Shown here one piece after another: positions 2,660 through 36,482 of a stretch of DNA of 36,482 bases. The position numbers were made by a program, and so were the translations under genes. The stretch lies in the IMG/VR virus record IMGVR_UViG_3300000970_000005, positions 1 to 36,482 of that record; one strand, 5' to 3'. Under the pieces are notes generated by a model. That model did no database searches, had not been told where the DNA came from, and was given only the letters and a program-made list of their open reading frames with translations. Every line of letters starts with the position of its first letter. The stretch's first letter is position 1. This DNA is from a virus.

Positions 2660-5600
2660 ATGAGTGATTACGAAACTGGAAAAATCGTTATTGAAGCGCC
2701 GCGTCCTGAAGAGGATGCGGCTTCATCATATGCGGAAACAGTTGAGGCGCGGATGGTTTCTGAAGAAGAAGCTGCGTTTCAAAGTCTGCTATCAGACCCC
2801 GCGAACAAATCAGAAAAGCCATCACCTTCCAAGCCTTCAGCGTCAAAGCCTTCACCACAAGAAGCCGATGATAATGGTTGGATTGATACGGTCAAAGGCG
2901 CGTTCTCTGATCTTGGTCAAGGCGTTATTGAAGCGCCCGGTCAAGTTGCTGGTGGGATCGCTGATGCGTTCGATGAAGCCGGGCAGTTCCTAGGGGAAGC
3001 AACCGGGATCGGGGGTTTTCAGTTCACCAATGATGAAGGTGAATTTGAATTCGATTATCTCAATTTTGAAGAATGGGAAGCGGCCGGAAAGCAAGATAGT
3101 TTGACGGGTCTTTTCAAAACTGATCCGGCGGACACCAAGACAGGATCATTCATCCGCGCAACGTCACAGTTTTTGACAGGCTTCATCCCTGCCATGAAGG
3201 GCGCAAAAGCGGCCGGGATTGGGAATAATGTGTTGCGCGCAATGTCCGCCGGGGCGGTTGCTGATGCTGTTGTTTTTGATCCGCATGAAGCCAGGCTTTC
3301 AACGTTCTTGAACGAAATACCCGCCCTTGATCCGTTTGTGTCGGATTATTTCGCGGACAATAATCCCGAAAATGAAAGTTCTTGGGAAGGTCGATTGAAG
3401 AACGTGGTGGAAGGTGCAGGGCTTGGCTTGGCGGCTGATGGAACGGCGGCTCTGTTCCGGGCGTTCAAGTATTACAAGGCGCAACGTAACACCATGGCAA
3501 GCCTTGCACCGGACGCTGCGCCGGGTGCGCAACGTGAAGCGGCGAAGGACTTGATTGATGACGCCGCGCGCAATGAACTGGTTCAGGATGTACCGGATGA
3601 AGCCTTGCGGCCGTTGGGTGATCCTGATGGTGATCTTCTGATCTGGGAAGATGGTCCGTCTTCAAAAATGGAAGAGGCTTTGGAACAAGCGGGACAGCGC
3701 GCGGCGGCAAGCCCGGCGGGTCCGCCACAGAAAAGCATCAAGATCAATCACGCTCGTATCCAATCCGGTGATGACGTGAAAGCCATGATTGAAGATTTGG
3801 CGCAGCGTGATGCACCAGCGATCAAAAAGAAGACACGCGGCAAGGTTTCCAATGAGCAGACCATCCGGGAAAGTTCTCAGGAATATCGTGATCTTGATGA
3901 TCTGATTGGGCGTCCGCCGGGTCCGATGACAGCGGCACAAGCTACCGCCGCACGCCGCTTGTTAACAGCTTCAGGTGAACAGATTGCTGATCTGGCAAAA
4001 CGTGCGGCCGCGCCGGATGCGTCAAAGGCGGACATCTATAACTTCCGCCGGGCAATGAGTGTTCACTATGCAATACAGTCTGAAGTGATCGCAGCGCGGA
4101 CAGAAACCGCGCGAGCGCTTCAAGCATGGTCTATCCCGGCCGGGTCCACAAAAGCGCGATCCCAAGCGATCAATGACCTAATCACACAATCCGGCGGCGC
4201 TGGTGATCTTCAGTCATTGGCAAAGGCGGTGGCGTCTGTGGGTGAAAACCCGGCGGCTTTGAATACAATGGCGCGGGAACTTGGAAAGGGGAAGTTCGGT
4301 CGCGCGCTCTATCAAGTGTGGATCAACGGAATTCTGTCATCACCCAAAACGCACGCGGTTAACATCATGTCAAATGCAATGGTGTCAATCTATTCCATTC
4401 CTGAAAGGTACATGGCGGCGGGAATTTCCAAAGCGTTTTACAACGGCGAAGTCACTACAGGTGAAGCGGCGGCGCAGGTATTCGGCTTGATGAAGGGCGC
4501 ACGGGATGGGTTGCGTTTGATCTGGCACGGGAACAAAGCGGAAGGAATGGACGGGATCGGGGATGTCTTTGATGCGTTTGCGAAACAAGAAATCCACGTC
4601 AGTGACATTTCGTCCGAAGCGTTTGGCTTGAAGCCCGGCGGTGTTGTGGGTCAAGGCTTGGATTATCTGGGCAAGATCGTAAACATCCCCGGTTCATTGC
4701 TGGCTCAGGAAGACAAGTTCTTCAAGTCCATCGGATACCGAATGGAACTTCATTCACTGGCACACCGAACGGCCGCATCGGAAGGGCTTGAAGGTGAAGC
4801 GATGGCAAAGCGTATCGCGGACATCCTGTCTGATCCACCATCAAGCCTGAAGGCTGAAGCAATGGATGTTGCGCACTACAACACGTTCACCAATGAATTG
4901 GGCAAGATCGGGAACAAGTTCACGCAAGGCGTCAATGCGATCCCCGGCGCGCGGCTGGTGGTTCCGTTCATCAGGACACCAACAAACATCATCAAGTACA
5001 CGTTTGCGCGGACGCCTCTTGCTTATATGTCGGGGGCAATCCGGGCGGACATTAAAGCGGGTGGCGCACGTGCTGCGCAAGCACATGCACGGGTGGCGCT
5101 TGGTTCCATGATGATGATGACCGTGGCGGATATGACCATGGAAGAAACGATCACCGGGCGCGGTCCTACTGATGCGCGGATGCGGAAGGTCAAAATGGAT
5201 ACGGGATGGATGCCGTATTCAGTTAAGGTTGGTGATCGGTGGTATCAGTACAGCCGAACCGATCCCATCGGAATGATCATGGGGATCGGGGCGGACATGG
5301 CTGAATTGATGTCAAACGCCAACAATGAAGAGGCGGAATTCATGGTCACGGCCGGGGTTCTGGCGTTGGCAAACAACCTTGCAAACAAAACCTATATGAC
5401 CGGAATTTATGACTTCATCGGGGCGATTGATCCAAATAACCCCACAAATGATCCCGGCCGATACTTGGCAGATTTTGCTGGATCAATGGTTCCATTTTCA
5501 TCCTTCTTGCGCAATGTCGCATCAACGGCCGATCCTATAGCGCGCGAAACGCGAACCGCCATCTATGATCAGGAAGGCGATGAAGACCCGGTTGCCGCTT

Positions 5601-10910: not shown

Positions 10911-11260
10911 CGCTGATCCACCACAGTTGCGCGCGCCCATGCCGCGCCTTCGATTGCCTTCTGTGGATCGCGCCATGATCTACGCCCGGCGCGTTCCCGG
11001 TTGTCTTCATACTTCCAATACATGCAAAGCCGGGTGATCAGGAACAAGACCCGCGCCTTCTTTGCTAAGTCGCGATCATGGCGGTTGATCATCATCAGAT
11101 CATAGAGTTGTTGTCCGCGTGTGGTTCGGCGGTTGTTGAATTCGATACGGCAAGACGGGGAGCAGTATTCCGCATCTTTGCGTTTCGCCTCATAGGACGC
11201 GCCACAGACAACGCAAGAGCGTTTTCGGGTGCTGGTGGTGCTTACAGATGTTACGGTCAT
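10907..11260 (-). CDS. Small zinc-finger protein (CxxC...CxxC)
   Basis: The product contains SCVVCGASYEAKRKDAEYCSPSCR, a four-Cys motif, followed by a basic helical region. It lies in the leftward early operon. Confidence 0.6.
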   Translation of the reverse strand: MTVTSVSTTSTRKRSCVVCGASYEAKRKDAEYCSPSCRIEFNNRRTTRGQQLYDLMMINRHDRDLAKKARVLFLITRLCMYWKYEDNRERAGRRSWRDPQKAIEGAAWARATVVDQR

Positions 11261-11685: not shown

Positions 11686-12325
11686 CGCCTTGATCCCCGG
11701 TCCCAAACGCTTCTTTAAAATTGGCGTCATTCTCTTGATCAACAGCCTTTGCGGTTTGGGCCAATTCATCCATGATCTTCTTGTCATCCTTGAATAAGTG
11801 GCGGACATCCTTTCCATCATCGCTGTTGTACCATTTACGGAAGGCGTCAGTTCCGCATGACGCCGCGTTCCGTGCGGTTTCGATTGCGTCATCACGCGCG
11901 GCGGGACCGGTTTCCGGTGCGCTGTTTTGTTGCGGTTCAAGCCGATGGATCGTCACAGGTTTTTTGACACCGCGCGTCACAGTCAACGGGATCGTAAGTT
12001 CCTGCGCGTCAATGTGGCTTAGGTGGCTGATGCGGATACCGCCAACAGCTTGCCCACCCCATTTCACTTCTGGGTCATTGAAGAGCGTCATGGATCGCCC
12101 GACATATTGGCTTCCATCTGGCCCCCATGCGCGCACCAGAACCCGGCGCACGGACTTGCACGGTTTGAAGGGCTTGCCGTTATCCCCTTCATAGTTGATC
12201 ACGATGGGCTGATCTTTGCTTTCCAGCATACGAACCCCGGTGATCGTGACTGTTCGGGGTGTGGCGAGGTCATCAGCGTTTAGCTGATCGCTTTTCGCCA
12301 GAATGGTTTTCGAAAGATCGGTCAT
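11675..12325 (-). CDS. Putative ssDNA-binding or annealing partner of the exonuclease (OB-fold-like N-terminus). Function is uncertain.
   Basis: 4-nt overlap with the exonuclease gene. The N-terminal beta-rich region (TVTITGVRMLESKDQPIVINYEGDNGKPFKPCKSVRRVLVRAWG...WGGQAVGGIRI) resembles a common phage family found beside recombination genes. It does not look like RecT, Erf or Bet. Confidence 0.5.
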   Translation of the reverse strand: MTDLSKTILAKSDQLNADDLATPRTVTITGVRMLESKDQPIVINYEGDNGKPFKPCKSVRRVLVRAWGPDGSQYVGRSMTLFNDPEVKWGGQAVGGIRISHLSHIDAQELTIPLTVTRGVKKPVTIHRLEPQQNSAPETGPAARDDAIETARNAASCGTDAFRKWYNSDDGKDVRHLFKDDKKIMDELAQTAKAVDQENDANFKEAFGTGDQGDGS

Positions 12326-13071
12326 GCTAAAATCTCCTGACTGTGATCAATCCATTCAACGGGGATGATCCGGTTGTCATCATCAGCCATGGCCGCTTTG
12401 AACTTGCGGACGCATTCTTGAACTTGCTTTTCAGCGACCTTGGCCGCTTCCGCGATCTTGGTTTGATAGATCGGGATCGGAAGCACGCGGATCACCAGCA
12501 TGTTGAACCCGTTGGAATAGCTGGTGAAGTCGCACCATTGGCGACCCGTGACCCATAGCCCGGTTTGAACCTGAAGCATGTATTCGCGCGGGATCACGTC
12601 ATCGTTTTCATCAGCGATGTGTTCAATGATCGTTTGCATCTGGAACTTTGGATCACGGCTCTTGTTTTCCATCATACCAAGATCACCAATCAGGCCATCA
12701 GGCGAGAACCCAACAGGAAAGCCAAGTGATCGGTTGATGACGAAACCGCATTCCGAAACGTCTTCATATTCGTTGGCGTATTTGATGCGCGCTTCCACCT
12801 CTTCCAGATGACCGCGTTCCATCGCGTAGGATTGAAAGTGATCTTCAGGAAATAGTCCAGCGCGCAATGCAGCAAGTTGATAGATCGCGGTGCGGGTGTC
12901 CTTGTTATTGGCGATCTTCAAGGTTGCCGGGGTGATCAGGCTGTTCATCATGGAACCCGTGATCATGCCCCGGCGTAGGTCATGCCATTCTTGGGAACCT
13001 TGTGTCAGGCGGTGGTAATATTCGACATCCCCGATCCGGGTGATGTCTTCATGTGGAAGTGGTTGTGTCAT
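12322..13071 (-). CDS. YqaJ-like (lambda Exo-type, PD-(D/E)XK) recombination exonuclease
   Basis: The GSQEWHDLRRGMITGS motif is typical of YqaJ. ERGH..E, SPDGL and ENKS fit the catalytic D...E.K arrangement. SD AAGGA lies upstream. Confidence 0.8.
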   Translation of the reverse strand: MTQPLPHEDITRIGDVEYYHRLTQGSQEWHDLRRGMITGSMMNSLITPATLKIANNKDTRTAIYQLAALRAGLFPEDHFQSYAMERGHLEEVEARIKYANEYEDVSECGFVINRSLGFPVGFSPDGLIGDLGMMENKSRDPKFQMQTIIEHIADENDDVIPREYMLQVQTGLWVTGRQWCDFTSYSNGFNMLVIRVLPIPIYQTKIAEAAKVAEKQVQECVRKFKAAMADDDNRIIPVEWIDHSQEILA

Positions 13072-13668: not shown

Positions 13669-13934
13669 CACACGTATTCCTTTGCGGCGGACACATAGCC
13701 ATTGCAAGCCATCGTGAAGGTTGTCCCGTTGTGCCGGATTTTCACGTGTGTGTTGTTTTCAGTCGTGGTCGAATGAAACAACGGGGCAAGCACGTGTTCC
13801 AATTGGCGAACAGTTCCCTTGAATGTCAAAGCGAGAAACCCGCCTGTCTCGGATTGCTTCAGAATGCGTTGCCTTAACACGCCCGTGTTGAATTCATCCG
13901 GGCAGTTGGTAAAGCGATCAAAATACAGTGTCAT
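13668..13934 (-). CDS. Hypothetical protein, first gene of the leftward early operon (88 aa)
   Basis: SD AAGGA lies 8 nt before the ATG, and the gene is immediately downstream of a TTGACT-17-TATCTA promoter-like element. Confidence 0.55.
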   Translation of the reverse strand: MTLYFDRFTNCPDEFNTGVLRQRILKQSETGGFLALTFKGTVRQLEHVLAPLFHSTTTENNTHVKIRHNGTTFTMACNGYVSAAKEYV

Positions 13935-13961
13935 GTGTGATTTCCTTGTGTTGCTAAATGC

Positions 13962-13990
13962 TAGATAAATTCACAACTTCACTAAGTCAA
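13962..13990 (-). promoter_or_regulatory. Sigma70-like leftward early promoter candidate (TTGACT-N17-TATCTA)
   Basis: On the minus strand the -35 TTGACT is at 13990..13985 and the -10 TATCTA at 13967..13962, with a 17-nt spacer. It sits in an AT-rich divergent intergenic region about 25 nt upstream of the ATG at 13934. Confidence 0.45.
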
Positions 13991-14011
13991 TCAAAAAAGT
14001 ATTTTCAGATT

Positions 14012-14046
14012 ATCTTTTTGGTATCTTAAAAAGATTACCATAAAAC
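14012..14046 (+). promoter_or_regulatory. Candidate rightward early promoter (TTGGTA-N17-TAAAAC) overlapped by an 8-bp-arm inverted repeat
   Basis: TTGGTA is at 14018-14023 and TAAAAC at 14041-14046. The inverted repeat ATCTTTTT (14012-14019) / AAAAAGAT (14028-14035) spans the -35 region and spacer. The consensus match is weak. Confidence 0.3.
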
Positions 14047-14063
14047 CAATGTTAGGACATATC

Positions 14064-14632: not shown

Positions 14633-14637
14633 GATCA

Positions 14638-14659
14638 ACAGGACATCGACAGGACATCA
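14638..14659 (+). repeat. Tandem 11-bp direct repeat ACAGGACATC(G/A) x2 immediately upstream of the ATG at 14663
   Basis: Read directly from the sequence at 14638-14648 and 14649-14659. It is flanked by ATCAACA at 14634 and 14656, which are 22 bp apart. Confidence 0.8.
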
Positions 14660-14662
14660 ACA

Positions 14663-14836
14663 ATGGCTCATTGTCGAAAATGTGGAAGTAAACGAATGAC
14701 CCGACGCCGGGCTGGTGAATACTTTTGCCAACGTTGTGGGATGCAACCCGGACAACGGCAATTTGACAGAACGGGAACCATTGATGTGGTTCCGTTAAGG
14801 TTGATTAAGGATCATAAAAAAAATGGCACAAAATAA
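14663..14836 (+). CDS. Small zinc-ribbon protein (57 aa, below the ORF-track cutoff)
   Basis: Manual translation gives MAHCRKCGSKRMTRRRAGEYFCQRCGMQPGQRQFDRTGTIDVVPLRLIKDHKKNGTK, with CxxC...CxxC. It overlaps the next ORF by 14 nt. Confidence 0.45.
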   Translation: MAHCRKCGSKRMTRRRAGEYFCQRCGMQPGQRQFDRTGTIDVVPLRLIKDHKKNGTK

Positions 14837-14999
14837 TGACAAGGTTTCAATGCAACTACGCCTTCCGGCCGATCTGGATGCGTGGTTTGTGCAAGAAGCA
14901 CATCGCCTTGGTGTGGCGAAACACGCAATGATTGTCATGGCCTTGCAGGACACGCGATCCGAACGCACAGCGAAGGTAGCGACAGATGCGCAGGGGTAA
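14823..14999 (+). CDS. Ribbon-helix-helix (Arc/CopG-like) DNA-binding protein (58 aa)
   Basis: Manual translation gives MAQNNDKVSMQLRLPADLDAWFVQEAHRLGVAKHAMIVMALQD... This shows the beta-strand (VSMQLRLP), helix, G, helix pattern of RHH proteins. It overlaps the next gene by 14 nt. Confidence 0.55.
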   Translation: MAQNNDKVSMQLRLPADLDAWFVQEAHRLGVAKHAMIVMALQDTRSERTAKVATDAQG

Positions 15000-15441
15000 G
15001 CCGGGCGGATATCGGGGCAAGAAATTCGTTTCTGGATCGTCAATAGGCGCGCGATCCAAGAAGGTCCGCATGTGCAATGGTTGTGGTTGTCAGTATCGGC
15101 CGGGGGAAAAGCCTGAAGTCTGTTTGTCATGTGGTGGTTTGGCGTTCACCACGTTTGACAGTGCCGGGGAAGCTGGACGGTGGGCAACGCTATGCCTGTT
15201 AGAAGGTCAAGGCAAGATCACCGATCTGAAGCGTCAAGTGTCTTTCAATCTGATGGCGGCGCGTCGGATTGATGGTCACTTGGTAGAAGCTAAAGTTGGC
15301 CGATACATCGCAGATTTCCAATATGTCCGCGATGGTGAAACCGTGATTGAAGATTACAAGGGCGCTGCGATTGATCCGCTTGCGGCTTGGAAACTTCGAC
15401 ACATGGAAGCGATGGGGCTTCCGGTAAAACTCACAGGATAA
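14986..15441 (+). CDS. DUF1064-family protein (putative recombination or junction endonuclease) with an N-terminal zinc ribbon
   Basis: FDSAGEAGRWATLCLLEGQGKITDLKRQVSFNL...YIADFQYVRDGETVIEDYKG follows the DUF1064 pattern (FDSKKEA.RY..L.LLE..G.I..L..Q..F.L....Y.ADF.Y...G...VED.KG). A CNGCGC...CLSCG motif lies upstream of it. Confidence 0.7.
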   Translation: MRRGKPGGYRGKKFVSGSSIGARSKKVRMCNGCGCQYRPGEKPEVCLSCGGLAFTTFDSAGEAGRWATLCLLEGQGKITDLKRQVSFNLMAARRIDGHLVEAKVGRYIADFQYVRDGETVIEDYKGAAIDPLAAWKLRHMEAMGLPVKLTG

Positions 15442-16120: not shown

Positions 16121-16957
16121 ATGGACAGCAACGCGCCGGATTGGGTTCCATGGAACGCGGCAAAGTGGATCGCAGGAACGTCAGAAATGGACGGGATCAC
16201 AGAACTTGTGTTCTTCCGGTTGTGCATGATTTCTTACGAACAGGGAAGCCCCGTTGTCACTGGTTCCGACAGGCGCAATTCTATGCGCTGCAAGGTGGAT
16301 GTTGACCAGTTCATTGCCGCACTTGAAGTCTTGCAAGAACTTCAAAAAGTCACACTCACGGATGAAGGGATCATGGTCCTTTCCACAAAGAAGAGGTTGC
16401 AAGACAGTTCGTCAAGGATGATGGCGAGACAACGGGGCGCGGCGATTGCCAGACGCAAGCGTGAATTGAAACAAGAAGGTAGATCATCAGGCGAAATTGA
16501 TCTGATCATCAAGAAAGAATTCCCTGATCATCAAAGCCGTATACAGACAATACAAAACAATACAGACAATACAGAACAAGACACACAGGGGGGTGTGGGG
16601 GGATTATTCGGAGATGAACTTCCTGAAAATCAATCCGATCTGGACGCGGCAAAAGACATTTGGAACGCGATGGCCGGGCAGCACGGACTTTCTAAGGTTC
16701 AAGTTGTCAAAGGAACCCGTCTGAAGAGATTGCGCGCCCGTCTGAAGGATTGCGGTGGTGTGGAAGGATGGAAGGTTGCAGTAAGCAAAGTTCCTGAAAG
16801 CGAATTCCTTCTAGGCAAAGTGAACGGCCGAAAGTGGAAAGCAGATTTTGATTTTCTGTGTCAGGAAAGTTCGTTCATCAAGGTCATGGAAGACCGATAC
16901 AAGAGCGATCCGAACGGTGGCGGATCGCCAACCATGCAAGCGATTAGGGGAAGATGA
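16121..16957 (+). CDS. DUF1376 (YdaU-like) replication-associated protein, a putative initiator or primosome organiser
   Basis: The N-terminus WVPWNAAKWIAGTSEMDGITELVFFRLCMISYEQG fits the DUF1376 pattern (W.P......T..M...E.GAY..L....W). A basic linker carries the repeat module, followed by a C-terminal domain (DIWNAMAGQHGLSKVQVVKGTRLKRLRARL...W...FDFL). Confidence 0.7.
   Translation: MDSNAPDWVPWNAAKWIAGTSEMDGITELVFFRLCMISYEQGSPVVTGSDRRNSMRCKVDVDQFIAALEVLQELQKVTLTDEGIMVLSTKKRLQDSSSRMMARQRGAAIARRKRELKQEGRSSGEIDLIIKKEFPDHQSRIQTIQNNTDNTEQDTQGGVGGLFGDELPENQSDLDAAKDIWNAMAGQHGLSKVQVVKGTRLKRLRARLKDCGGVEGWKVAVSKVPESEFLLGKVNGRKWKADFDFLCQESSFIKVMEDRYKSDPNGGGSPTMQAIRGR
16482..16533 (+). repeat. Three GATCATCA motifs phased at exactly 22 bp inside the DUF1376 gene
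   Basis: Copies lie at 16482-16489, 16504-16511 and 16526-16533. The last two are the full TGATCATCA. Each copy falls in a different codon phase, encoding SS, II and DH. Confidence 0.85.
16541..16602 (+). repeat. Degenerate 9-10 bp tandem iterons (ATACAGACA / ATACAAAACA / ATACAGACA / ATACAGAACA / AGACACACA) followed by GGGGGGTGTGGGGGG
   Basis: Read directly from the sequence, with the G-block at 16588-16602. The segment is homologous to 27614-27674. Confidence 0.8.
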
Positions 16958-21815: not shown

Positions 21816-21868
21816 CCGGATAGACCTTTTCCGACATGATGCGCCCACACATCACAAGGGCTTGCATC

Positions 21869-22984
21869 ATGTTGGGAATAAATATCCGCACCACACAGAA
21901 TGAAGGATCACTTGGTATTCTCGGACAAGTGGTCACGGTCAATGATGACAACACGTTGACCATCGAAAACAACCAAGGCAATTCATTCACAATCGACACG
22001 ACACCGGACAGCTATGACGGAACCTATTCTGTCACACAGGCTGAACTGGATGCGGGTCCAGTGGCTTTGGTCGCAACGGCTTTGTCAGGTGACGTTGATC
22101 CTGAAGCTGGCGAGACGCTTTCCATTGTTCCGCCTCTCTTCGCTTATGATCCCGATCTTGGGGATGTGGGTGATGTCACCTATACCGCCAACGGAACGAA
22201 CGCGGTGGATGTGACGGACCCGGCGAACCCCACTTTGCTTATTGACGCGGCTGATGCGGGGGTGACGCTCACGGTCACGGCAAGCCTGACACAGACGGGC
22301 GTGGGAACGACTAACAGCGTGTCCAATGGTGTCACTATCGAAGATTTACCCGCGCCATCCATCACAGTCACACGTTTGTTTGCGGATGCGTTGGCCGATG
22401 ATGGGGGATTTGACACGGAAGGTGAATGGAATGGTGTTGACCTAAGCGCCCATGCGTCTGGTGATCTGATCCTTGCGTTTGTTGGACCAACAGACAACTT
22501 CACCGCCATGACTTTCGATGATGGGACAGGTGCGGTTGCCATGAACCTTGAGGCAACAACAACAGGAAACAACGGTTCACGTTGTCAGTTGTTTTCGCAC
22601 ACCCTGACATCGGCAGGTACAGCGCTAAATGATTTTCTTGCTACACCCGGCGTGAACGCCATTAACCGTTATATGGAACTATTTATCGTGCGCGGCGGGG
22701 TTATTGCAGATGTGCAGCAAGCGGCAGATAGCGGCGGAACGATAAATCCGTTGTCTGTTGACGTTTCAATCACCGATACGATTAACGAGATTGTCGCGTT
22801 TGTGTGTGGCTTTGATTGGGACACCGAAACACTGACAGGTGTGACGGCCAATGCCAAAACAGCAACCACTAATGTGGACATTATCACCGGGCGCGCATCC
22901 AATGTCGCAGGACCAACGCACACTGTTTCCTTTGATCAGTCACCTACACAACGCAAGGGTGCAATCATTGTTAATTTGGAGTAA
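21869..22984 (+). CDS. Structural-looking Thr/Asp/Gly-rich protein, a possible fiber or receptor-binding accessory
   Basis: The ATG at 21869 has AAGGG 9 nt upstream, and 21836 is an alternative. The composition is typical of fibers. It lies directly upstream of a spike-like gene. Confidence 0.55.
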   Translation: MLGINIRTTQNEGSLGILGQVVTVNDDNTLTIENNQGNSFTIDTTPDSYDGTYSVTQAELDAGPVALVATALSGDVDPEAGETLSIVPPLFAYDPDLGDVGDVTYTANGTNAVDVTDPANPTLLIDAADAGVTLTVTASLTQTGVGTTNSVSNGVTIEDLPAPSITVTRLFADALADDGGFDTEGEWNGVDLSAHASGDLILAFVGPTDNFTAMTFDDGTGAVAMNLEATTTGNNGSRCQLFSHTLTSAGTALNDFLATPGVNAINRYMELFIVRGGVIADVQQAADSGGTINPLSVDVSITDTINEIVAFVCGFDWDTETLTGVTANAKTATTNVDIITGRASNVAGPTHTVSFDQSPTQRKGAIIVNLE

Positions 22985-22989
22985 ACACC

Positions 22990-25266
22990 ATGAGCAAGAT
23001 CAACTTTCTTTCAGCGGCGCTTTTGGGCGCGGTAGTCACAATCAACGGTACATCAACCCAAGAATGGGGCGGAATACAGGCGACACCGGGAACGTCTGTC
23101 ACTATCGAATTTGAGCGATCCAATTACTACGCCGCACCAGAAGGTTTCAACTTCTACACCAGCGTGTCAGGTTTCGACACCGCAAGTGAGACCGATCTTG
23201 CGATCTATGATCCATCCTTTCACGATAAGGTTTATTTTTGGGATCATGGTGATGATTATGATTTCACCGCGCCACAGCATATTCCATCGCAGTTTATGAA
23301 AAGCCGGGATGCAATGGGACCAATCAGCGTCCACACCTATCGCAGCGCCGGAAACTATCGACCAAGGTGCATTGTCTATGAAAAATCATCCGGCAAGATC
23401 GGTGTTGGTTATCTCAACATTGGCGGCGCGTCTGAAGACACCCCGGCCGTTGCTGATCCTGATGTTGTCTTTGCCGGGGCAAACACGGTTTATGTTGATC
23501 CTGATGCGGTCTACAGCGGTGCGCCATCGGGCGCGCAAGAAAGCACCAGCTTAAACAGCGCTTACAATTTAGTTGCTGCATCTGAAAACTTGATGCGCAT
23601 TGTCCTATCCGCCGGGAAAACGCATGAAGTCACGTCTGAAATCGGATGGCGTCCATCATCGGCAACACGTGGACGGGTATTCAGGATTGAAAGCGATCCA
23701 TCAAATCCGGCAACCGTAGAACCAAGCGCGTCATTCCCTGATAATCAAGTGATGATCCGGGATCAGTCGAACCGGGATAATATGGCTAATCGTGAAAGTT
23801 GCCTATTCGGTGTGCGCTTCATTGGTCCATGGGACAGCACAACCGAAACCGGAAAGGCGATTTATATGATCAATCATACCATCTATTCATGTCAGTATGG
23901 TTTGGTTGAACAGTGTCATTTTTCCGGTTGGGCGATTGCGGTGAACTCACAGTTAAGCGGCGGCGTGAACCCCGGAAATCTTGTCAACTATGTGGTGACA
24001 GACACGGTTGTGACGAACTGGCAGAACTTTGGCTTTTATGGTCTGGATTATACGATCTTTGGTTTTGCGGGATCGCGGATCATGCAAGATGTGGACGCGC
24101 TAAGCGGTGGAAACAAATACATTGTTGGGTATACCGCATTTTACAACAACCATGGACCATATCGCATCCCTTACGTCTATATGGGATGTTTTCTGTCATG
24201 CGATCTGTTCAATCGGGTGGGATGGTCTGGTCAAGGTTCCATTGATGCAATCCAGCCTTGCGCGCGGATCAATTCGTCATGCAACGCAGGTGCGCGCTTC
24301 AATATGTGGGGATGTGTTCTTGAAGGTGGATATGTGGTTTTCCATGCCTTCCCTGCAAACAACAACCTCACGATCAACGTGGTCAACTACGTGCTTGAAG
24401 CCAATTTCTTCCTTATGGACTTTGAAACCACGGTTCCGATTGAAACGGCTTATGGGGGATGGTCAATCCGCAACAACTTCGCGGTTGTGCCGAACGTCCA
24501 AAAGGACATATCGGTATATGGCGAAGTTTGGGGCGGTCACTTTGGTGAATTTGTGCGGGTGCGTGGGGATCAGTTGAACACATACACATCGGAATGTATG
24601 GCCGCGCCAATCATTGTGGAAAACAATACGATCATCAATCTTTTGGCGGATGTGAATGACAGCCCGGCCGGGGGAACTATTGTAGCTGTGGCGCAGAATG
24701 GATCGAATACGTTCACCGCGATCACAGATCGCAACAACATCATTCATGAGCCTAACAGAACGGTTCCCAATACCCCGGCCGCGCCATTGTCTTCAGCGCA
24801 GTTGTTCACGCCAAGAATGAAGGCGTATGTTAAAACCAGCGCAAGGTTCGTGTTTGCTTCCACAACGGTTCTTGATGGTGGAATGATCATGGTTGATCTG
24901 ACAACGGCTTTTGGTGGAAGCAACATTTCGGCGGTTGCTGATATTGATGTTGCTTCAGGCAAGACGCACGTGGAAGCTGGTGGAACGTTCCATTTGGTGG
25001 ATGTGATCAGTGTTGTTGGTGACACCTTAACTGTTCAGAACAACACAGGGGCAACCATTTCAAACGCGACAGCGTTGACGGTTCCCCTTGCCAATCACAT
25101 CACGTTGACGGGAAGCGAGACCCCGGCCGGATCGGCTCACTTGTGGGAACTTGCGGCGGGATCACCGGGCATTGGTGGCGGTGTGACTGATGGTCCGCTT
25201 TATGACTTCAATGGGGATGATCGCAGTTCACCGCACGATCTGGGCGCGATCCTATACGCTTCCTGA
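22990..25266 (+). CDS. Tail spike / putative depolymerase-like protein (758 aa)
   Basis: GGAG lies 8 nt upstream. A PKD-like signature (HTYRSAGNYRPRCIVYE) is near the N-terminus. Recurrent N-rich turns (IRNNFAV, ENNTIINLL, DRNNIIHEPN) are compatible with a parallel beta-helix. Confidence 0.65.
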   Translation: MSKINFLSAALLGAVVTINGTSTQEWGGIQATPGTSVTIEFERSNYYAAPEGFNFYTSVSGFDTASETDLAIYDPSFHDKVYFWDHGDDYDFTAPQHIPSQFMKSRDAMGPISVHTYRSAGNYRPRCIVYEKSSGKIGVGYLNIGGASEDTPAVADPDVVFAGANTVYVDPDAVYSGAPSGAQESTSLNSAYNLVAASENLMRIVLSAGKTHEVTSEIGWRPSSATRGRVFRIESDPSNPATVEPSASFPDNQVMIRDQSNRDNMANRESCLFGVRFIGPWDSTTETGKAIYMINHTIYSCQYGLVEQCHFSGWAIAVNSQLSGGVNPGNLVNYVVTDTVVTNWQNFGFYGLDYTIFGFAGSRIMQDVDALSGGNKYIVGYTAFYNNHGPYRIPYVYMGCFLSCDLFNRVGWSGQGSIDAIQPCARINSSCNAGARFNMWGCVLEGGYVVFHAFPANNNLTINVVNYVLEANFFLMDFETTVPIETAYGGWSIRNNFAVVPNVQKDISVYGEVWGGHFGEFVRVRGDQLNTYTSECMAAPIIVENNTIINLLADVNDSPAGGTIVAVAQNGSNTFTAITDRNNIIHEPNRTVPNTPAAPLSSAQLFTPRMKAYVKTSARFVFASTTVLDGGMIMVDLTTAFGGSNISAVADIDVASGKTHVEAGGTFHLVDVISVVGDTLTVQNNTGATISNATALTVPLANHITLTGSETPAGSAHLWELAAGSPGIGGGVTDGPLYDFNGDDRSSPHDLGAILYAS

Positions 25267-25585: not shown

Positions 25586-25845
25586 TGAACGCCGCGTCAA
25601 TCGAAAAGATCAAGGATGATTTCCGGGCGTGTTTAACGGTTCATGAAGTGGACCTTACCGCCCGTAAACATGCGCGCCCGGTGGTTGAAATGGGGAAGAC
25701 CAAAGCAACCCGGCCGCAATCCATACAAATCAAAAACCTTGCCAACTATATGCGGACTATGATCCGCCAAGGCATTATCCCCGGACATCAGCAACATGAC
25801 CAATCCCAAGAGAACAGCGGCAATCCGCAAGCGCCTAAAGGATGA
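25585..25845 (+). CDS. Hypothetical basic protein (86 aa) directly upstream of terL, a positional candidate for the small terminase
   Basis: TGATG overlap with the upstream stop. Its last 50 nt overlap the terL ORF in another frame. Position is the only evidence. Confidence 0.4.
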   Translation: MNAASIEKIKDDFRACLTVHEVDLTARKHARPVVEMGKTKATRPQSIQIKNLANYMRTMIRQGIIPGHQQHDQSQENSGNPQAPKG

Positions 25846-27433
25846 TTTCGAATATTTCGCGCCGCGATGTCTGAAAATCCTTACAAAGCCGAACGAACAT
25901 GGAAAGGTTGAAATCCTTCCGTTTAAGTTCAACGCTGCGCAAAAGCACATCCACAAACGGATAGAGCAACAAAGATCAGAATTTGGCTATGTCCGGGCGA
26001 TCATCCTGAAGGGAAGACAGCAAGGCGCATCCACCTATACGGAAGGGCGCTTCTACTGGAAGACCACACAGAACAAGGGGGAAAAAACCTACATCCTGAC
26101 ACACTCAAAAGAGGCTACGGACAACCTGTTTGGGATGGTTGATCGTTATCACACCAATGCACCGATCCACGTGCGGCCGTATGTCGGGAAAGACAACGCT
26201 AAGGAACTGGTTTTTGACAAGCTGGATAGTCGCTATCAGGTGGCAACGGCCGGCGCAAAAGGTGCGGGGCGATCCGCAACGCTGACCAACGTTCACGGTT
26301 CAGAAGTCGCCTTTTGGGAAAACGCTGAAAAACACTTGGGCGGGATGCTTCAGGCGGTTCCATTGGCGCAGGGAACGGAAGTTGTCCTTGAAAGCACCGC
26401 CAACGGGATCGGCAATGTATTTCACAAACAATGGCAAATGGCGGAACGTGGTGAAAGTGACTTCATCGCCATCTTTGTTCCATGGTTTTGGCAGACAGAA
26501 TATAGGCGCACACCACCACAAGACTTCCAAGTTTCGATGGACCCAGAAAGCGTTCCAGATGGGGAACTGACGGAAGCCGAATATCAAGAACTTTACAATC
26601 TGGATGATGGTCAAATCTTCTGGCGTCGGATGAAAATCCGGGAACTTGGCGGCGGGGATGAAGGCTTTGCGTTATTCCAACAGGAGTATCCAGCCACACC
26701 AGATGAAGCATTCCAATCATCACAGGCGGGGAACAGTTTGATCAAGCGCAAGCATGTCCTGAAGGCGCGGAAATCGACTGTAACAAGCCATGGTCAATTG
26801 ATCATTGGTGTTGATCCCGGCGGCGAAGGCGAAGGTGGCGATCCAACAGGTATAATCAGGCGACGTGGGCGGCGCATGTTCGGACACCAGTTGATCACCA
26901 AGCTGAACACAATGCAAATCGCGGCGTTGATTGCGCGGATCGTCAAGGATGAACGTCCACACCGGGTCTTTGTTGATGTTGGTGGGTTAGGGACCGGGAT
27001 TGTTGACAGGTGCCTTGAAATGCCTGTGTGTCGCGGTGTGGTGATCCCTGTGAACTTTGGGGAAGCTGCGATGGACCCGGACAAGTATAGGAACCGCCGG
27101 GCGGAAATGCACTGGACATTGAAGGAATGGTTGGAAGACCCCGGCGGCGCGAACATTCCTGATGAAGATGTGATCCAAGCTGATTTCTTGGCGTCAGTGA
27201 TCAAGGCGGGTGACAGCCTTCAGCGGCGTCAATTGATGTCTAAAGAATGGATGAAGTCAAAAGGCATTGCATCACCAAACCTTGCGGACGCGGGTGCGTT
27301 GACATTTGCCATCCCGGTTGCGGCCGTGGATGCTATGGTTGGTCTATCGGCTGATGAATACGATCCATTAAGTCCAGATCAGACGTTCCATCAGTCCAGT
27401 GTGTCGGATTTTGATCCTTTGGATGGATATTGA
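25796..27433 (+). CDS. terL: Terminase large subunit
   Basis: A Walker A-like segment is AIILKGRQQGASTY and a Walker B / catalytic Glu-like segment is LTNVHGSEVAFW. An ESTANG coupling motif is present, followed by a C-terminal nuclease-type region (IGVDPGG...VFVDVGGLG). Confidence 0.85.
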   Translation: MTNPKRTAAIRKRLKDDFEYFAPRCLKILTKPNEHGKVEILPFKFNAAQKHIHKRIEQQRSEFGYVRAIILKGRQQGASTYTEGRFYWKTTQNKGEKTYILTHSKEATDNLFGMVDRYHTNAPIHVRPYVGKDNAKELVFDKLDSRYQVATAGAKGAGRSATLTNVHGSEVAFWENAEKHLGGMLQAVPLAQGTEVVLESTANGIGNVFHKQWQMAERGESDFIAIFVPWFWQTEYRRTPPQDFQVSMDPESVPDGELTEAEYQELYNLDDGQIFWRRMKIRELGGGDEGFALFQQEYPATPDEAFQSSQAGNSLIKRKHVLKARKSTVTSHGQLIIGVDPGGEGEGGDPTGIIRRRGRRMFGHQLITKLNTMQIAALIARIVKDERPHRVFVDVGGLGTGIVDRCLEMPVCRGVVIPVNFGEAAMDPDKYRNRRAEMHWTLKEWLEDPGGANIPDEDVIQADFLASVIKAGDSLQRRQLMSKEWMKSKGIASPNLADAGALTFAIPVAAVDAMVGLSADEYDPLSPDQTFHQSSVSDFDPLDGY

Positions 27434-27505
27434 TCATCAGGTCTTAAATCTCTGATCATCAATGTGATTATTTCTGATCATCAGAGGATAATTGATTGAT
27501 CATCA
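27431..27505 (+). repeat. Four TGATCATCA 9-mers phased at exactly 22 bp, the first overlapping the terL stop codon
   Basis: Copies lie at 27431-27439, 27453-27461, 27475-27483 and 27497-27505. Confidence 0.9.
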
Positions 27506-27575
27506 AAAACCACGAAAAATGGTTATTTTTGTGCTTAAAAAGTGTGCATGATCCGAAATTATCCAATGAAAATTC

Positions 27576-27606
27576 TGATGATCAAGGCGAAACGCTCTGA
27601 TGATCA
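27576..27606 (+). repeat. Two TGATGATCA 9-mers 22 bp apart (reverse complement of TGATCATCA)
   Basis: Copies lie at 27576-27584 and 27598-27606. The second begins the block homologous to 16525 onward. Confidence 0.85.
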
Positions 27607-27613
27607 AAGCCGT

Positions 27614-27674
27614 ATACAATACAGACAATACAATACAGACAATACAATACAGACAGACAAAGGGGGTGTGGGGG
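27614..27674 (+). repeat. Perfect 14-bp tandem repeat ATACAATACAGACA x3 followed by GACAAA and GGGGGTGTGGGGG
   Basis: The units are 27614-27627, 27628-27641 and 27642-27655. The G-block is at 27662-27674. Confidence 0.9.
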
Positions 27675-27676
27675 AA

Positions 27677-27832
27677 ATGACGTTCAAAGAAATGATCAGG
27701 ATTTACAGCCGGGTGATTTGGTTCACGATCCGGGAAGCGATGATTGACGTTTGGTTGATCTTCTGGCCGATGTTTTCGGTGATCGGGTTGATAATGGTTA
27801 TCATCCGGTTTTGGTCGTGGGTGTTGTTCTGA
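27677..27832 (+). CDS. Small hydrophobic protein (51 aa), a possible holin-like or membrane protein
   Basis: The product is MTFKEMIRIYSRVIWFTIREAMIDVWLIFWPMFSVIGLIMVIIRFWSWVLF. The ATG comes just after the G-block. The upstream in-frame extension to 27542 reads through the repeat module and I treat it as non-coding, without certainty. Confidence 0.4.
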   Translation: MTFKEMIRIYSRVIWFTIREAMIDVWLIFWPMFSVIGLIMVIIRFWSWVLF

Positions 27833-28344: not shown

Positions 28345-28477
28345 TGATCAAACAGCGGACGCCGCAAAGGAAGCTGGTTCCAGAAATCGCATCATGCGGA
28401 AGCGGCAATCATCAGGTGGGAACCTGTTCTCCCGTGGTGGCGCAGTTGGTGTTTCAAAAGACACGTTGGGCGGCTGA
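28262..28477 (+). CDS. Small basic protein upstream of the portal (71 aa)
   Basis: The ATG at 28262 has GAGG 7 nt upstream. It is Lys/Arg/Gln-rich and ends in ...GNLFSRGG...SKDTLGG, a pattern I recall from small proteins beside podovirus portal genes. It overlaps 27832..28344 by 83 nt, so the start is uncertain. Confidence 0.45.
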   Translation: MGELIGMKKPKVSKATQQAQRRQAKSIDDQTADAAKEAGSRNRIMRKRQSSGGNLFSRGGAVGVSKDTLGG

Positions 28478-30123
28478 TGCCTCAACTCAAACTTGAAACT
28501 CTGATTGAAGCGTCTGAAAGAGCATGGACGAACAAATCACATTGGGATGAATTGGTCCGCGAATGTTTCGAATTCGCTATGCCAGATCGAAACCCGTATC
28601 ACTACAACGGGACCGGACGTCCACAGGGCGCGCACGGAACCAAGGGGAAGGATAAGAATTCCCGGCGCGTGTATGACAGCACGTTGCAAACTGACACCAT
28701 CAAGATCGCCAATCGCATCCAATATGAACTGTTTCCGATTGGTCATCAGTGGGCAACGTTCCAGCCCGGCGCATTTGTTCAGGACCAAGCCAAGGAACAA
28801 GCGCGCGGATCGCTTCACGGACTTCAGGAAGTTGTCTTCACCGCTATCAGCTTCAGTAATTTTGATCTTTCAATCTCGGAATGGTTGCTTGAATTGATTG
28901 TTGCTGGAACGGCCGTGATGCACGTCACGCCGGGTGATGATGATAACCCGGTCATCTATCAATGCGTTTCACAGTCTCACGTTGCCTTGCGTGAAGGCGC
29001 GATGGGCAAGATTGATCTGATCAGCAGGAAGCACAAGATGCGCCTGACACTGGTTGAACAGACTTGGCGGGATGCCAAAATTGACATCACGGAAGATGAA
29101 CGCAAAGACGATCCCGAACTAGACATCATTGATGTTTGCTATTTCGACGCAAGGGAAAACGTTTGGTTCTATGACGTGGTGATCACAGGCGGATTGAAAG
29201 CAAAAACCAAAGAACACCGGATTGTTGAACGATCATATGAAATCTGCCCTTGGATCATCACCAGATGGAACAAGGCGGCGGAAGAAGTCCAAGGTCGTTC
29301 GCTTGTCATGCAAGCGTTGCCGGATGCGCGGGTTCTATCGGCGGTTAAAGCGTACATCCTGAAGCAAGCCGCGCTTTCAATCGGGGGCGTTTTCCTTGGC
29401 CGAAATGATGGCATTCTTAACCCTAACACGGTGCGGATAGCGCCGGGCGCAGTGATCCCCGTCCGGGCGACAGGCGGTCAAGCTGGTGCAAGCCTGACAC
29501 CGCTTCCGGTTGGCGGTGACATGAACCTTGCCGATCTGGTGATCAAAGACTTGGTGAATTCCATCCACAAGATCATGATGAATGATGGGATGCCGGATGT
29601 GTCTGAAGGTGTCCGAACTGCAACCGAACTGATTGAACGGATGAAGGAACTTCAGCAATCCTTGGGCGCACCCTTTGCGCGCATTTTGAAGGAAGGGATC
29701 ATTCCGATCCTTGAAGCTACCATTGCCGTTTTGTCTGAAGCTGGTGTGATCCCTGAACTGGATGGACGCAAGATCAAGCTGAACAGCGGACAGATTGAAG
29801 TCCGGTTCGCGTCACCTCTTGTTCAAGGTCAATCGGTTCGCGAGGTTGAGGCAGCAAGACAAGCCATGATGATCACGGCGGAAGCGGCCGGGGAAGAGGC
29901 CGTTGGCCTGAACTTCAAGATTGAAGACTTTGGCGCGTTTGTGGCTGAAAAACTTGGCGTTGTTCCTGATCTGGTTCGGATCAGATCGGAACGTGAAAAG
30001 TTGCAGAAAGAGGCGGCGCAAGTTATGGCTATGCAAGCCAATGGGCAACCGTCCGTTGGTGGAACGGGGGGAGTTATCCCACAACAGCAACAAATGGCCG
30101 GGTCCGTTCCTCTGGCCGCATAG
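28477..30123 (+). CDS. Portal (T7 gp8-like head-to-tail connector)
   Basis: At 548 aa it sits upstream of the scaffold and capsid genes. The N-terminal region (..RNPY....G...........VYDST......IANRIQYELFP) parallels the T7 gp8 N-terminus (..RAPY.........LASKLMLALFP). Confidence 0.85.
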   Translation: MPQLKLETLIEASERAWTNKSHWDELVRECFEFAMPDRNPYHYNGTGRPQGAHGTKGKDKNSRRVYDSTLQTDTIKIANRIQYELFPIGHQWATFQPGAFVQDQAKEQARGSLHGLQEVVFTAISFSNFDLSISEWLLELIVAGTAVMHVTPGDDDNPVIYQCVSQSHVALREGAMGKIDLISRKHKMRLTLVEQTWRDAKIDITEDERKDDPELDIIDVCYFDARENVWFYDVVITGGLKAKTKEHRIVERSYEICPWIITRWNKAAEEVQGRSLVMQALPDARVLSAVKAYILKQAALSIGGVFLGRNDGILNPNTVRIAPGAVIPVRATGGQAGASLTPLPVGGDMNLADLVIKDLVNSIHKIMMNDGMPDVSEGVRTATELIERMKELQQSLGAPFARILKEGIIPILEATIAVLSEAGVIPELDGRKIKLNSGQIEVRFASPLVQGQSVREVEAARQAMMITAEAAGEEAVGLNFKIEDFGAFVAEKLGVVPDLVRIRSEREKLQKEAAQVMAMQANGQPSVGGTGGVIPQQQQMAGSVPLAA

Positions 30124-31054: not shown

Positions 31055-31084
31055 AGCGCCGCCCTATGATGGGGCGGCGTTTCT
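31055..31084 (+). terminator. Rho-independent terminator candidate
   Basis: A GC-rich stem pairs 31055-31064 with 31072-31080 (CGCCGCCC / GGGCGGCG core), with a 7-nt loop followed by TTTCT. Confidence 0.6.
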
Positions 31085-31110
31085 ACATCAGCAACAAGGA
31101 TCATAAAAAA

Positions 31111-32097
31111 ATGAACATCAATGACTTCCTTATGAAGTATCGTCGTCCTTTGTGGGATGGCGAAGGTGAAGGCGGCTCAAATGCGGCGGCTGGATCAGGC
31201 GGTGATGATGATAACGGTGAAAAGGGTGGCGAAGGCGGCGAAGGTGACAAGTCCGGTTCGCGCAATCTTGGCCTTCTTGATCGTGGCAAGTCTGACGAAG
31301 GCAAAGGCGAAAAATCAGGTGAAGGGGAAGGTGAAAAAAACGGGGAAGGTAAAGGCGATCCTGTCCGACCGGAACACATCCCGGAAAAGTTTTGGGACAC
31401 CAAGAAAGGGGAAGTGAACACTGAAGCCATGGTGAAGGCTTATGGTGATCTTGAAAAGGCTCACGGTGAACTGAAACGCGGCGGAAAGGACGTTCCGAAA
31501 ACGGCGGAAGAATACTTTCCAGATGGTATTGATCTTCCCGATGAAGTTGATCGTCTATCCATTGATGGTCCAGACGATCCCGGATTGAAGGCTTGGGGTG
31601 AAATCTGTCACAAGTATGGATTGGGCAAAGAAATGGCGACAAACCTTGCCCGTGATATGTTCGTTATGATGAACCAATATGCGCCGGAAGCGGTGGATCA
31701 GGACGCGGAATTTGATGCACTTGGCAAAGGCGCGCAAGCGCTGATTGACGGAACGCTTGTTTGGGTGAACGGTCTTGAACAGTCTGGCAAGTTGTCAGGT
31801 GATGACATGGATGTTGTGAGTGAACTTGCGCAAACAGCCAATGGAATTCGGTTCCTTGCGAATATCCGGGAAGCCTCTGGTGAAGAACGTATTCCGATCA
31901 TCCCATCAACAGGCGAAAAAACCATGACTTCAAATCAATGGCATGACGCCATGAAAAGTGCGGTCAAGGCGAATGATTATGCTGAACAAGAGCGATTGGA
32001 AGAGTTGGGGAAAACTATCAACGGTCTTGATCCATCCAGCGGCGGACGCCAAGGCGGCGTGAATGCTGAATTGACAGGTCGCAAACGTTCCGGTTAA
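31111..32097 (+). CDS. Scaffolding (capsid assembly) protein
   Basis: The ATG at 31111 follows the terminator and an AAGGA. The N-terminus is a low-complexity G/E/K tract, followed by PEKFWD...GEVNTEAMVKAYGDLEKAH, typical of podovirus scaffolds. It sits immediately upstream of the capsid gene. Confidence 0.65.
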   Translation: MNINDFLMKYRRPLWDGEGEGGSNAAAGSGGDDDNGEKGGEGGEGDKSGSRNLGLLDRGKSDEGKGEKSGEGEGEKNGEGKGDPVRPEHIPEKFWDTKKGEVNTEAMVKAYGDLEKAHGELKRGGKDVPKTAEEYFPDGIDLPDEVDRLSIDGPDDPGLKAWGEICHKYGLGKEMATNLARDMFVMMNQYAPEAVDQDAEFDALGKGAQALIDGTLVWVNGLEQSGKLSGDDMDVVSELAQTANGIRFLANIREASGEERIPIIPSTGEKTMTSNQWHDAMKSAVKANDYAEQERLEELGKTINGLDPSSGGRQGGVNAELTGRKRSG

Positions 32098-36383: not shown

Positions 36384-36482
36384 ATGGCAACATTATTCAC
36401 AACAATGATTGCGACATTGAAAGGCGGCGCGGCGGCTGGTGCGGCGGCTGGTGCTGGTTCTGGTGCGGCGGCTGGTGCTGGT
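36384..36482 (+). CDS. N-terminal part of the junction-spanning internal virion protein, continuing at position 3 (or at 48 once the overlap is removed)
   Basis: The ATG at 36384 lies 1 nt after the tubular B stop. The product begins MATLFTTMIATLKGGAAAGAAAGAGSGAAAGAG, and the frame is continuous with 3..482. Confidence 0.6.
   Translation, partial: MATLFTTMIATLKGGAAAGAAAGAGSGAAAGAG

Follow-up and report, generated by a model that had tools for sequence, protein, structure and literature searches.

A phased palindromic repeat array downstream of a phage terminase gene is probably a second, extragenic copy of the phage's replication origin

The IMG/VR virus record IMGVR_UViG_3300000970_000005 (36,482 nt, analysed over its full length and called the window below) carries a highly ordered set of short repeats in a gap of 243 nt that follows the gene for the large terminase subunit, terL, and the question raised by this locus is what such an array might do at that position. 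The gap is the largest on the list of open reading frames (ORFs), the runners-up being about 219 and 205 nt, just as stated in the original prediction, which was made from the letters of the DNA and named the gap as a candidate packaging (pac) site, origin or iteron cluster. Our reading, to which we give a probability of about 0.72, is that the phage has two copies of an iteron-type replication origin: a primary one within the gene for the replication initiator (locus A, 16481-16602) and a second, extragenic one, which is the array (locus B, 27431-27674). In each, palindromic initiator sites of 9-11 bp, set at intervals of 22 or 12 bp, would be combined with a candidate unwinding tract and a G/C-rich block.

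Locus B begins within terL itself (25796-27433, + strand; phrog_2, E 8.5e-26), which forms the 5' boundary of the gap. The terL stop codon TGA (27431-27433) lies inside the first of four exact palindromic copies of TGATCATCA, which start at 27431, 27453, 27475 and 27497, an exact 22-bp phase, and make up sub-array B1 (27431-27505); the spacers among these copies show no relation to one another. The array is then split by a spacer of 70 nt with 70% A+T (27506-27575), across which the start-to-start distance is 79 bp, out of phase. Sub-array B2 (27576-27613) contains two copies of TGATGATCA, starting at 27576 and 27598 and thus again 22 bp apart, followed by the junction AAGCCGT. Next comes a strand-asymmetric, A/C-rich tract (27614-27661, + strand) made up of three copies of ATACAATACAGACA (27614-27655; 100% matches in Tandem Repeats Finder) and then GACAAA, which is a candidate DNA unwinding element. 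Its 48 nt comprise 28 A, 10 C, 4 G and 6 T (71% A+T), and the 40-bp window from 27613 is the 5th least stable genome-wide, at -45.2 kcal/mol as against a mean of -57.4 (sd 3.8). The tract is bounded by a G-block, GGGGGTGTGGGGG (27662-27674, + strand), the 3' half of which probably doubles as the ribosome-binding site (RBS) of the gene that starts with the next ATG, at 27677. This small gene (27677-27832, + strand), encoding a predicted membrane protein of 51 amino acids (aa), is the 3' boundary of the gap, and the portal gene (28477-30123) lies downstream of it, with locus B between terL and both. Judged from gene starts, the gap is noncoding, since homologs of the small membrane-protein gene in five related loci (L019, L030, L032, L037 and L038) start at the equivalent ATG; in three relatives there is also an in-frame stop 3-5 codons 5' of that start.

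The iteron 9-mer, TGAT-S-ATCA, is palindromic about a central base that is free to vary, and its wider consensus is C-TGRT-N-AYCA-R. TGATCATCA and TGATGATCA are reverse complements of each other that differ by one base, and the copies originally described as two reverse ones beside four forward ones are therefore central-base variants of a site that has no orientation. Exact matches to TGAT[CG]ATCA number 14 in the genome, where 1.03 are expected and no more than 7 were seen in any of 500 dinucleotide-preserving shuffles; they additionally include isolated copies at 11086, 29867 and 36058. Pairs of such matches at exactly 22 bp number five, compared with 0 in each of the 500 shuffles. All the motifs and the 22-bp phase were found at the positions that the original prediction had given, and its view that the phasing and not the count carries the argument holds good, as the background is rich in TGAT and ATCA words. 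Neither the palindromy of the 9-mer nor the second module at 16481-16602 was part of it. A comparison by eye of the motif and spacer with the DnaA box and with the IHF, Fur and FNR consensus sequences gave no convincing match.

The whole module, comprising iterons, AAGCCGT, an ACAGACA-type tract and a G-block, recurs at 16481-16602. In the iteron segment of this locus A (16481-16540), AGATCATCA at 16481 and TGATCATCA at 16503 and 16525 keep the 22-bp phase and are followed by AAGCCGT; then come a tract of ATACAGACA-type repeats (16541-16587, + strand) and a G-block, GGGGGGTGTGGGGGG (16588-16602, + strand). The stretch 27574-27674 aligns with 16501-16601 at 79% identity over 102 nt (E 2e-19), and the iterons of B1 match locus A too. 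Both tracts, 16541-16587 and 27614-27661, are composed of A/C-rich repeats with 67-71% A+T and lie within the 12 least stable 40-bp windows of the genome, the one at 16540 being the 12th.

Locus A is embedded in the middle of a gene (16121-16957, + strand) for a putative replication initiator with a winged-helix-like N-terminal domain, a disordered linker and an O/DnaD-like C-terminal domain. Among the PHROG profiles, the product matches phrog_10469 ("DnaD-like helicase loader", E 6e-20), phrog_345 ("replication initiation O-like", E 3e-16) and also phrog_19658 and phrog_5810 ("replication initiation protein"), the O-like profile being matched by its C-terminal part only; its homologs include proteins of the YdaU/DUF1376 family, and a PDB sequence search gave no significant match. 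The protein is best described as DUF1376-like. An AlphaFold2 model with a mean predicted local distance difference test (pLDDT) score of 84 places the N-terminal domain at residues 13-118 and the C-terminal domain at 171-256, with a long helix after the winged-helix-like N-terminal domain and a short helix, residues 123-133, that is encoded by the iterons. The segment 16481-16540 as a whole encodes residues 121-140 (the sites themselves, 16481-16533, encode 121-138), while residues 139-168, encoded by the tract and the G-block, are disordered, with pLDDT below 50. Given the modelled domains and the disordered stretch between them, the module of locus A appears to lie in the interdomain linker of the initiator. 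All Foldseek matches of the N-terminal domain are to winged-helix DNA binders, including the N-terminal domain of DnaD.

For the relatives, each post-terL gap was compared by blastn with the rest of its own locus, and the best match elsewhere was recorded. Both loci are covered in 11 genomes, and in 9 of these the best match is the linker of the genome's own initiator gene, with E values of 2e-19 in the window, 3e-15 in L037, 5e-14 in L032, 3e-13 in L038, 1e-8 in L019, 1.5e-8 in L039, 8e-6 in L044, 3e-5 in L048 and 2e-4 in L043. L045 differs in that its loci A and B share only another palindrome, CTGTCACAG, the three exact copies of which in 20.8 kb are all found there; in L030 and L042, locus B is present and the initiator gene lies beyond the DNA that was fetched. 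L019, L043 and L044 have clear DUF1376 initiators (53-64 bits) together with repeats that are entirely different from those of the window, so that the gap sequence changes along with the initiator. Lineages with a terL only 55-79% identical to the window's keep locus B in the same place, with underlying sequences that are altogether different. The same test was applied to phage SPP1 as a positive control, where it paired gene 38, at residues of about 117-153 of 256, with 4866-4956 (82% over 76 nt, E 2.7e-13), which is the gene 7/8 intergenic region and the published oriR (PMC6316719).

As to how far the family extends, homologs of this terL are numerous, lying on metagenomic contigs of 33-37 kb; over 5000 proteins in the database match at E 1e-80 or below. 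Searched by megablast, 50,697 phage records contained no match to terL together with the gap. The nearest terL of a cultured phage is that of the P22-like Pseudoalteromonas phage H6/1, which has 46% aa identity and abuts the portal gene, the region not being syntenic; the A-B pattern was not seen in 80 genome or prophage loci with a terL 44-53% identical to the window's, a match recorded in L105 being an unrelated repeat outside any initiator gene. A single phage contig binned with a metagenome-assembled genome of the alphaproteobacterium Sulfitobacter provides a weak hint as to the host, which is probably Gram-negative and marine.

The arrays themselves bear marks of constraint at the level of the DNA. 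Site statistics were compiled from 36 sites in the noncoding B arrays of 7 genomes, for flanking positions not fixed by the search pattern. The base at -1 is C in 29 of the 36 and C or T overall, and the base at +9 is a purine in all of them, while the spacer columns carry no more than 0.3 bit except for a preference for T or A 7 bases past the motif. Neighboring sites are spaced 22 bp apart in 15 cases and 12 bp in nine, with one spacing each of 21 and 23 bp; there are three large interruptions, of 79 bp in the window, 81 bp in L042 and 323 bp in L030, the last with an inserted ORF of 72 aa. Since 22 and 12 bp differ by one helical turn, neighboring sites would lie on nearly the same face of the helix. 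GATC is present in six iterons and at one further place in the 243-nt gap of the window, while at equivalent places in the arrays of L032, L037, L038, L039 and L030 there are iteron variants that lack it (TGATGACCA, TGGTTATCA and TGATTACCA). In the comparison of relatives that had been suggested along with the original prediction, the motif and its 22-bp phase are kept and the spacers drift, and this conservation, together with the A-B paralogy, supports the proposal that the array binds a protein and is not simply spacer DNA.

At locus A, where the iterons are coding, codons were compared in those columns in which all 7 genomes have the same amino acid. The 7 genomes agree on the codon in four of eight columns of the iteron segment (pairwise codon identity 0.77), as against one of 28 in the N-domain (0.43) and none of 19 in the C-domain (0.39); by this measure the iterons of coding locus A are constrained as DNA. 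The number of iterons there is two or three, depending on the genome, and 12-bp units encode SDDQ-type repeats. The G-block is kept at locus A and in most relatives, but has decayed in the B copy of L032 and is a C-block in L042, while L048 has GCGC-type blocks in its place at both loci. In L048 (7560-7640) locus B has the A/C-rich tract and its GC block (of the GCGC type, not G5TGTG5) in the opposite orientation to locus A, and the iterons keep their 22-bp phase. With the tract inverted in one genome and the G-block decayed in another, neither translation signals nor coding would explain why the tract is retained.

Within a genome the two loci also appear to evolve together. The junction between the last iteron and the tract, AAGCCGTATACA, is identical at A and B and specific to the window genome; L038 and L039 each have a junction sequence of their own, again common to the two loci, and on this evidence the junctions display concerted evolution of loci A and B. 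A global matrix of A/B identities across the genomes proved too flat to demonstrate this (0.62-0.82, in sequence of low complexity), only the junction 12-mers being informative. The B copy of the window keeps the reading frame of locus A, and B arrays exceed A arrays in size and contain iterons that have no counterpart at locus A.

The layout has a clear parallel in SPP1, where oriL is internal to gene 38, the run of head-morphogenesis genes is interrupted by an intergenic segment with oriR, and gp38 binds both origins (PMC6316719, PMC3485210). The two are about 12-13 kb apart and gp38 has nanomolar affinity (PMC6316719, PMC3485210); each is made up of direct repeats together with an AT-rich unwinding element, and the oriR segment carries accessory ("moron") genes (PMC6316719). 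It has been proposed that gp38 at oriR stalls the replication fork, leading to a switch from theta to sigma replication by way of a resolvase, an exonuclease and a recombinase (PMC6316719, PMC3485210). As in SPP1, one putative origin of the window is in the middle of the initiator gene and the second is intergenic within the head-morphogenesis genes, several kb away, and both copies combine direct repeats with an A-rich tract, which in the window is a candidate for easy melting (PMC6316719). The blast signature is also the same, about 80% identity over 76-102 nt between a mid-gene segment and a late intergenic one; the window's initiator and G38P both match phrog_345, at overlapping profile positions; and a Holliday-junction resolvase and an exonuclease, needed by the theta-to-sigma model, are encoded by both phages (PMC3485210). 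The differences are nonetheless substantial. The window's initiator has no pairwise similarity to G38P (BLASTP E 2) and its N-terminal domain is DUF1376-like; its repeats, palindromes of 9-11 bp at 22 or 12 bp, do not resemble those of oriL and oriR in sequence; and its virion module is T7-like (portal PF12236) and its probable host a marine, Gram-negative bacterium, SPP1 being by contrast a siphovirus that infects Bacillus. Locus B is found ahead of the portal gene, between it and terL, while SPP1 oriR follows the portal gene and gene 7; binding and function, demonstrated experimentally for SPP1, are predicted here. (In L030, at 3200-3420 on the - strand, the ORF of about 72 aa, MSFKLKKSQENLKPF..., that is inserted between the two iteron sub-arrays of locus B resembles the accessory genes by SPP1 oriR.)

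Phage lambda offers a second comparison, its ori consisting of iterons and an AT-rich tract in the middle of gene O that encode an interdomain linker, with an iteron number that varies among relatives and thereby changes protein residues (PMC7466680). Locus A is like this origin, as found in lambdoid and Stx phages, in having iterons and an adjacent tract serve as the linker in mid-initiator, in the dyad symmetry of its iterons and in their variable number. In lambda, however, there is a single origin, for which no second, extragenic copy has been described, and the iterons are longer than those of the window, at about 19 bp. Satellite phage P4 has two separated clusters, ori and crr, of the same initiator-binding repeats in one replicon, several kb apart, which is a likeness to loci A and B. 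The P4 alpha protein is a primase-helicase unrelated to the window's initiator, though, crr is needed in cis for ori, and neither cluster lies in an initiator-gene linker. A literature search on DUF1376 and second phage origins found nothing beyond SPP1 and lambda.

Should loci A and B indeed be two copies of an origin, dimers of the initiator's winged-helix N-terminal domain would occupy the iterons at both, and the initiator complex would melt the adjacent tract at locus A, and possibly at B, allowing the helicase to be loaded. Locus B could then fire as an origin in its own right, or it could, in line with the proposal for SPP1 oriR, be a place at which tightly bound initiator stalls the fork arriving from locus A; a fork stalled in this way would, as in the SPP1 model, be processed by the phage's Holliday-junction resolvase, exonuclease and recombinase, taking replication from the theta to a concatemer-forming mode. 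Initiator binding, tract melting and either origin firing or fork arrest at locus B are what we infer from the arrangement. A more specific version, which we regard as tentative and rather doubtful, is that locus B, instead of being a redundant origin, is a programmed, initiator-bound barrier at the entrance to the packaging and head genes, stalling the fork from the intragenic origin so as to bring about a recombination-dependent switch to concatemers; such a two-locus arrangement would have arisen or been kept independently of SPP1 in a large family of uncultured phages with T7-like virions, and the barrier would co-evolve with the initiator of each lineage. If that were true, the SPP1 model would describe a general phage strategy and not the peculiarity of one phage. 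Two genes of the window matter only to this SPP1-type switch: one for a Holliday-junction-resolvase-like protein (14986-15441, + strand; phrog_190, E 3e-13), with homologs that belong to DUF1064 (PF06356), and one for a RecE/YqaJ-like exonuclease (12322-13071, - strand; phrog_149, E 2e-26), with an L037 homolog that matches PF09588 (YqaJ).

Several observations weigh against reading locus B as a second origin. The window's initiator scores 17 bits against Pfam DUF1376 (PF07120), under the gathering cut-off of 30.1, and the L037 homolog scores 22, compared with 33-64 bits for the initiators of L019, L044, L043 and L040; the Foldseek matches of the N-terminal domain are weak, the best having an E value of 0.04. 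The noncoding gap after terL, and hence a locus B at that position, is absent from L040 and L041, of which L040 holds both genes and is a clear negative while the initiator gene of L041 was not identified in the fetched locus; locus B would accordingly be dispensable at the post-terL position in at least some lineages. With only about 70% A+T and a richness in A and C, the tract departs from the classical, AT-rich type of unwinding element. No origin can be picked out from the cumulative GC skew, which is monotonic, though cumulative GC and AT skew are uninformative for mapping an origin here, being driven by gene orientation. Some of the within-genome similarity of A and B could, finally, be kept up by gene conversion alone.

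A packaging site was among the options named originally, with P1 pac as the analogy: the terminase, through its small subunit, would bind the phased repeats and cut nearby, as at the TGATCA/G hexamers of P1 under Dam control. The array does adjoin terL and is rich in GATC, and P1 pac is similarly composed of short, GATC-containing repeats clustered in two groups; moreover, the closest terL of a cultured phage is from a P22-like phage, and P22-like phages carry out headful packaging from a pac site. Paralogy to the initiator-gene linker, seen in 9 genomes, is nevertheless not predicted for a terminase site and makes the initiator, and not the terminase, the predicted binder. GATC is often missing from the iteron variants of relatives, L040 and L041 have the same terL family and no gap, and P1 pac lies within the pacA gene and is built of hexamers, not of palindromic 9-mers at a fixed 22-bp phase. 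To our knowledge, the pac sites of P1, P22 and SPP1 are in or before the small-terminase gene and not after terL, and alphaproteobacteria, to which the only host hint here (the Sulfitobacter bin) points, generally lack Dam. A packaging site is on these grounds very improbable, and the Dam-dependent analogy with P1 is not supported, given both the paralogy and the non-conserved GATC core, whereas the origin or iteron-cluster part of the original proposal gains from the paralogy with the initiator gene. An RNA element, that is, a structured 5' leader, a small RNA or a translational enhancer combining the ACA-rich tract with a G-rich Shine-Dalgarno sequence for the small membrane-protein gene, can be given scarcely any weight. 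The G-block lies 2-15 nt before the ATG at 27677, and in four relatives a hairpin of C- and G-runs (described below) precedes the RBS, but the whole window has no Rfam match at gathering thresholds, folding of the gap is unremarkable on the + strand (z -1.37), and the value on the - strand (z -2.57) does not exceed expectation for a palindromic motif whose copies can pair among themselves. At locus A, moreover, the module sits within coding sequence, and the tract inversion in L048 and the decayed G-block in L032 tell against a role in translation.

An operator array, in which a repressor or activator would bind the palindromes and control a promoter of the downstream morphogenesis genes as well as a similar internal promoter in the initiator gene, would suit the form of the sites, as dimeric helix-turn-helix regulators typically bind palindromes of 9-11 bp at intervals of about two helical turns. 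Locus B is immediately 5' of the run of structural genes, and repressor-like proteins are encoded in the genome, with LexA_DNA_bind in relatives. A promoter and terminator scan, however, found neither a sigma-70-like promoter on the + strand of the gap nor a terminator after terL; the motif is absent from the divergent early-control intergenic region (13934-14049), a tract of low stability and a GC block accompany the sites even when inverted, the sequence changes with the type of initiator, and locus A is placed exactly as the origins of lambda and SPP1 are, all of which makes regulation of this kind unlikely. Somewhat more unlikely still is that illegitimate recombination placed part of the initiator gene in the gap, where it would survive as a functionless, neutral remnant kept similar to locus A by gene conversion. 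The genome-specific junctions common to A and B, indicative of concerted evolution, the locus A reading frame retained in the window's B copy and the two relatives that have no locus B would all fit such a remnant. Against this, the position of locus B has survived complete sequence turnover across lineages with a terL 55-79% identical to the window's; the B arrays are larger and have iterons absent from A, B1 being four exact copies with unrelated spacers; the spacings are quantised and the flanking bases constrained; and instability would be expected, in the absence of selection, for direct repeats of about 100 bp, 5-11 kb apart, when the phage has recombination functions of its own.

If the dual-origin reading is right, a putative function can be assigned to the largest noncoding region of the genome and both candidate origins of an uncultured lineage have been identified, while the sequence that DUF1376-like initiators recognize can be predicted, namely a palindrome recurring at intervals of 22 or 12 bp. 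The SPP1-type dual origin is already known and the mechanism itself would not be new; what appears to be new is its presence in a distant uncultured lineage, the palindromic iteron and the family-wide co-variation of gap and initiator. A two-origin layout that, as far as we could find, has been studied experimentally only in SPP1 would thus recur, with co-varying sequences, in a distant group of phages, which opens the fork-barrier model of SPP1 to comparative testing. Comparing an initiator-gene linker with the rest of its genome, as validated on SPP1, provides a computational signature for second phage origins; a caution is that phased, GATC-rich repeats beside terminase genes are not to be read as pac sites.

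Some smaller features of the same region and of the genome at large may be recorded here. In L030 (3060-3100, - strand), L037 (11775-11812), L038 (11812-11848) and L039 (11790-11826), a C-run lies before the G-block of locus B and is complementary to it, so that the pair can form a small hairpin just 5' of the RBS of the small membrane-protein gene (CCCCC-TAAA-GGGGG and then AGTGTGAGGGGG, for example); locus B of the window is without such a C-run. The window's positions 1-47 are identical to 36436-36482 over 47 nt, with two copies of a 24-nt unit, CTGGTGCGGCGGCTGGTGCTGGTT, at each end. This looks like the assembly overlap of a circular or circularly permuted genome broken within coding DNA that is repetitive; the genome is probably complete in the window, and the ends of the window are not physical termini. 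GATC occurs 402 times in it (11 per kb) and is the second commonest tetramer, at 2.8 times the expectation from base composition but 1.11 times that from a trinucleotide Markov model, and the excess is therefore codon-driven and no evidence for Dam biology; GTAC (0.52x) and CTAG (0.64x) are depleted, and the relatives have 6-16 GATC per kb.

Other repeats are found at 14634-14662, where ATCAACAGGAC is repeated in tandem 2.6 times in intergenic DNA of the early region just 5' of the ORF starting at 14663, and may be another regulatory site, and at 31297-31358 and 31435-31476, where imperfect 24-nt and 21-nt tandem repeats (GAAGGCAAAGGCGAAAAAAAAGGG and others) within ORF 31066-32097 would encode a low-complexity segment rich in Lys, Gly and Glu; homologs of this ORF have Phage_T7_Capsid matches. 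The left end of the L032 locus (112-459) holds six tandem 60-nt units that are 65-79% identical to the reference copy. Just 5' of the terL region, two large ORFs of 382 and 758 aa (21836-25266) have no Pfam or PHROG match, and large ORFs of other sizes take their place in L039 and L042. The ORF at 19985-20899 matches phrog_424 ("phosphoadenosine phosphosulfate reductase", E 1.6e-39), while L039, L040 and L048 have a C5 DNA methylase (PF00145) in the equivalent region, which may be a variable slot for DNA modification.

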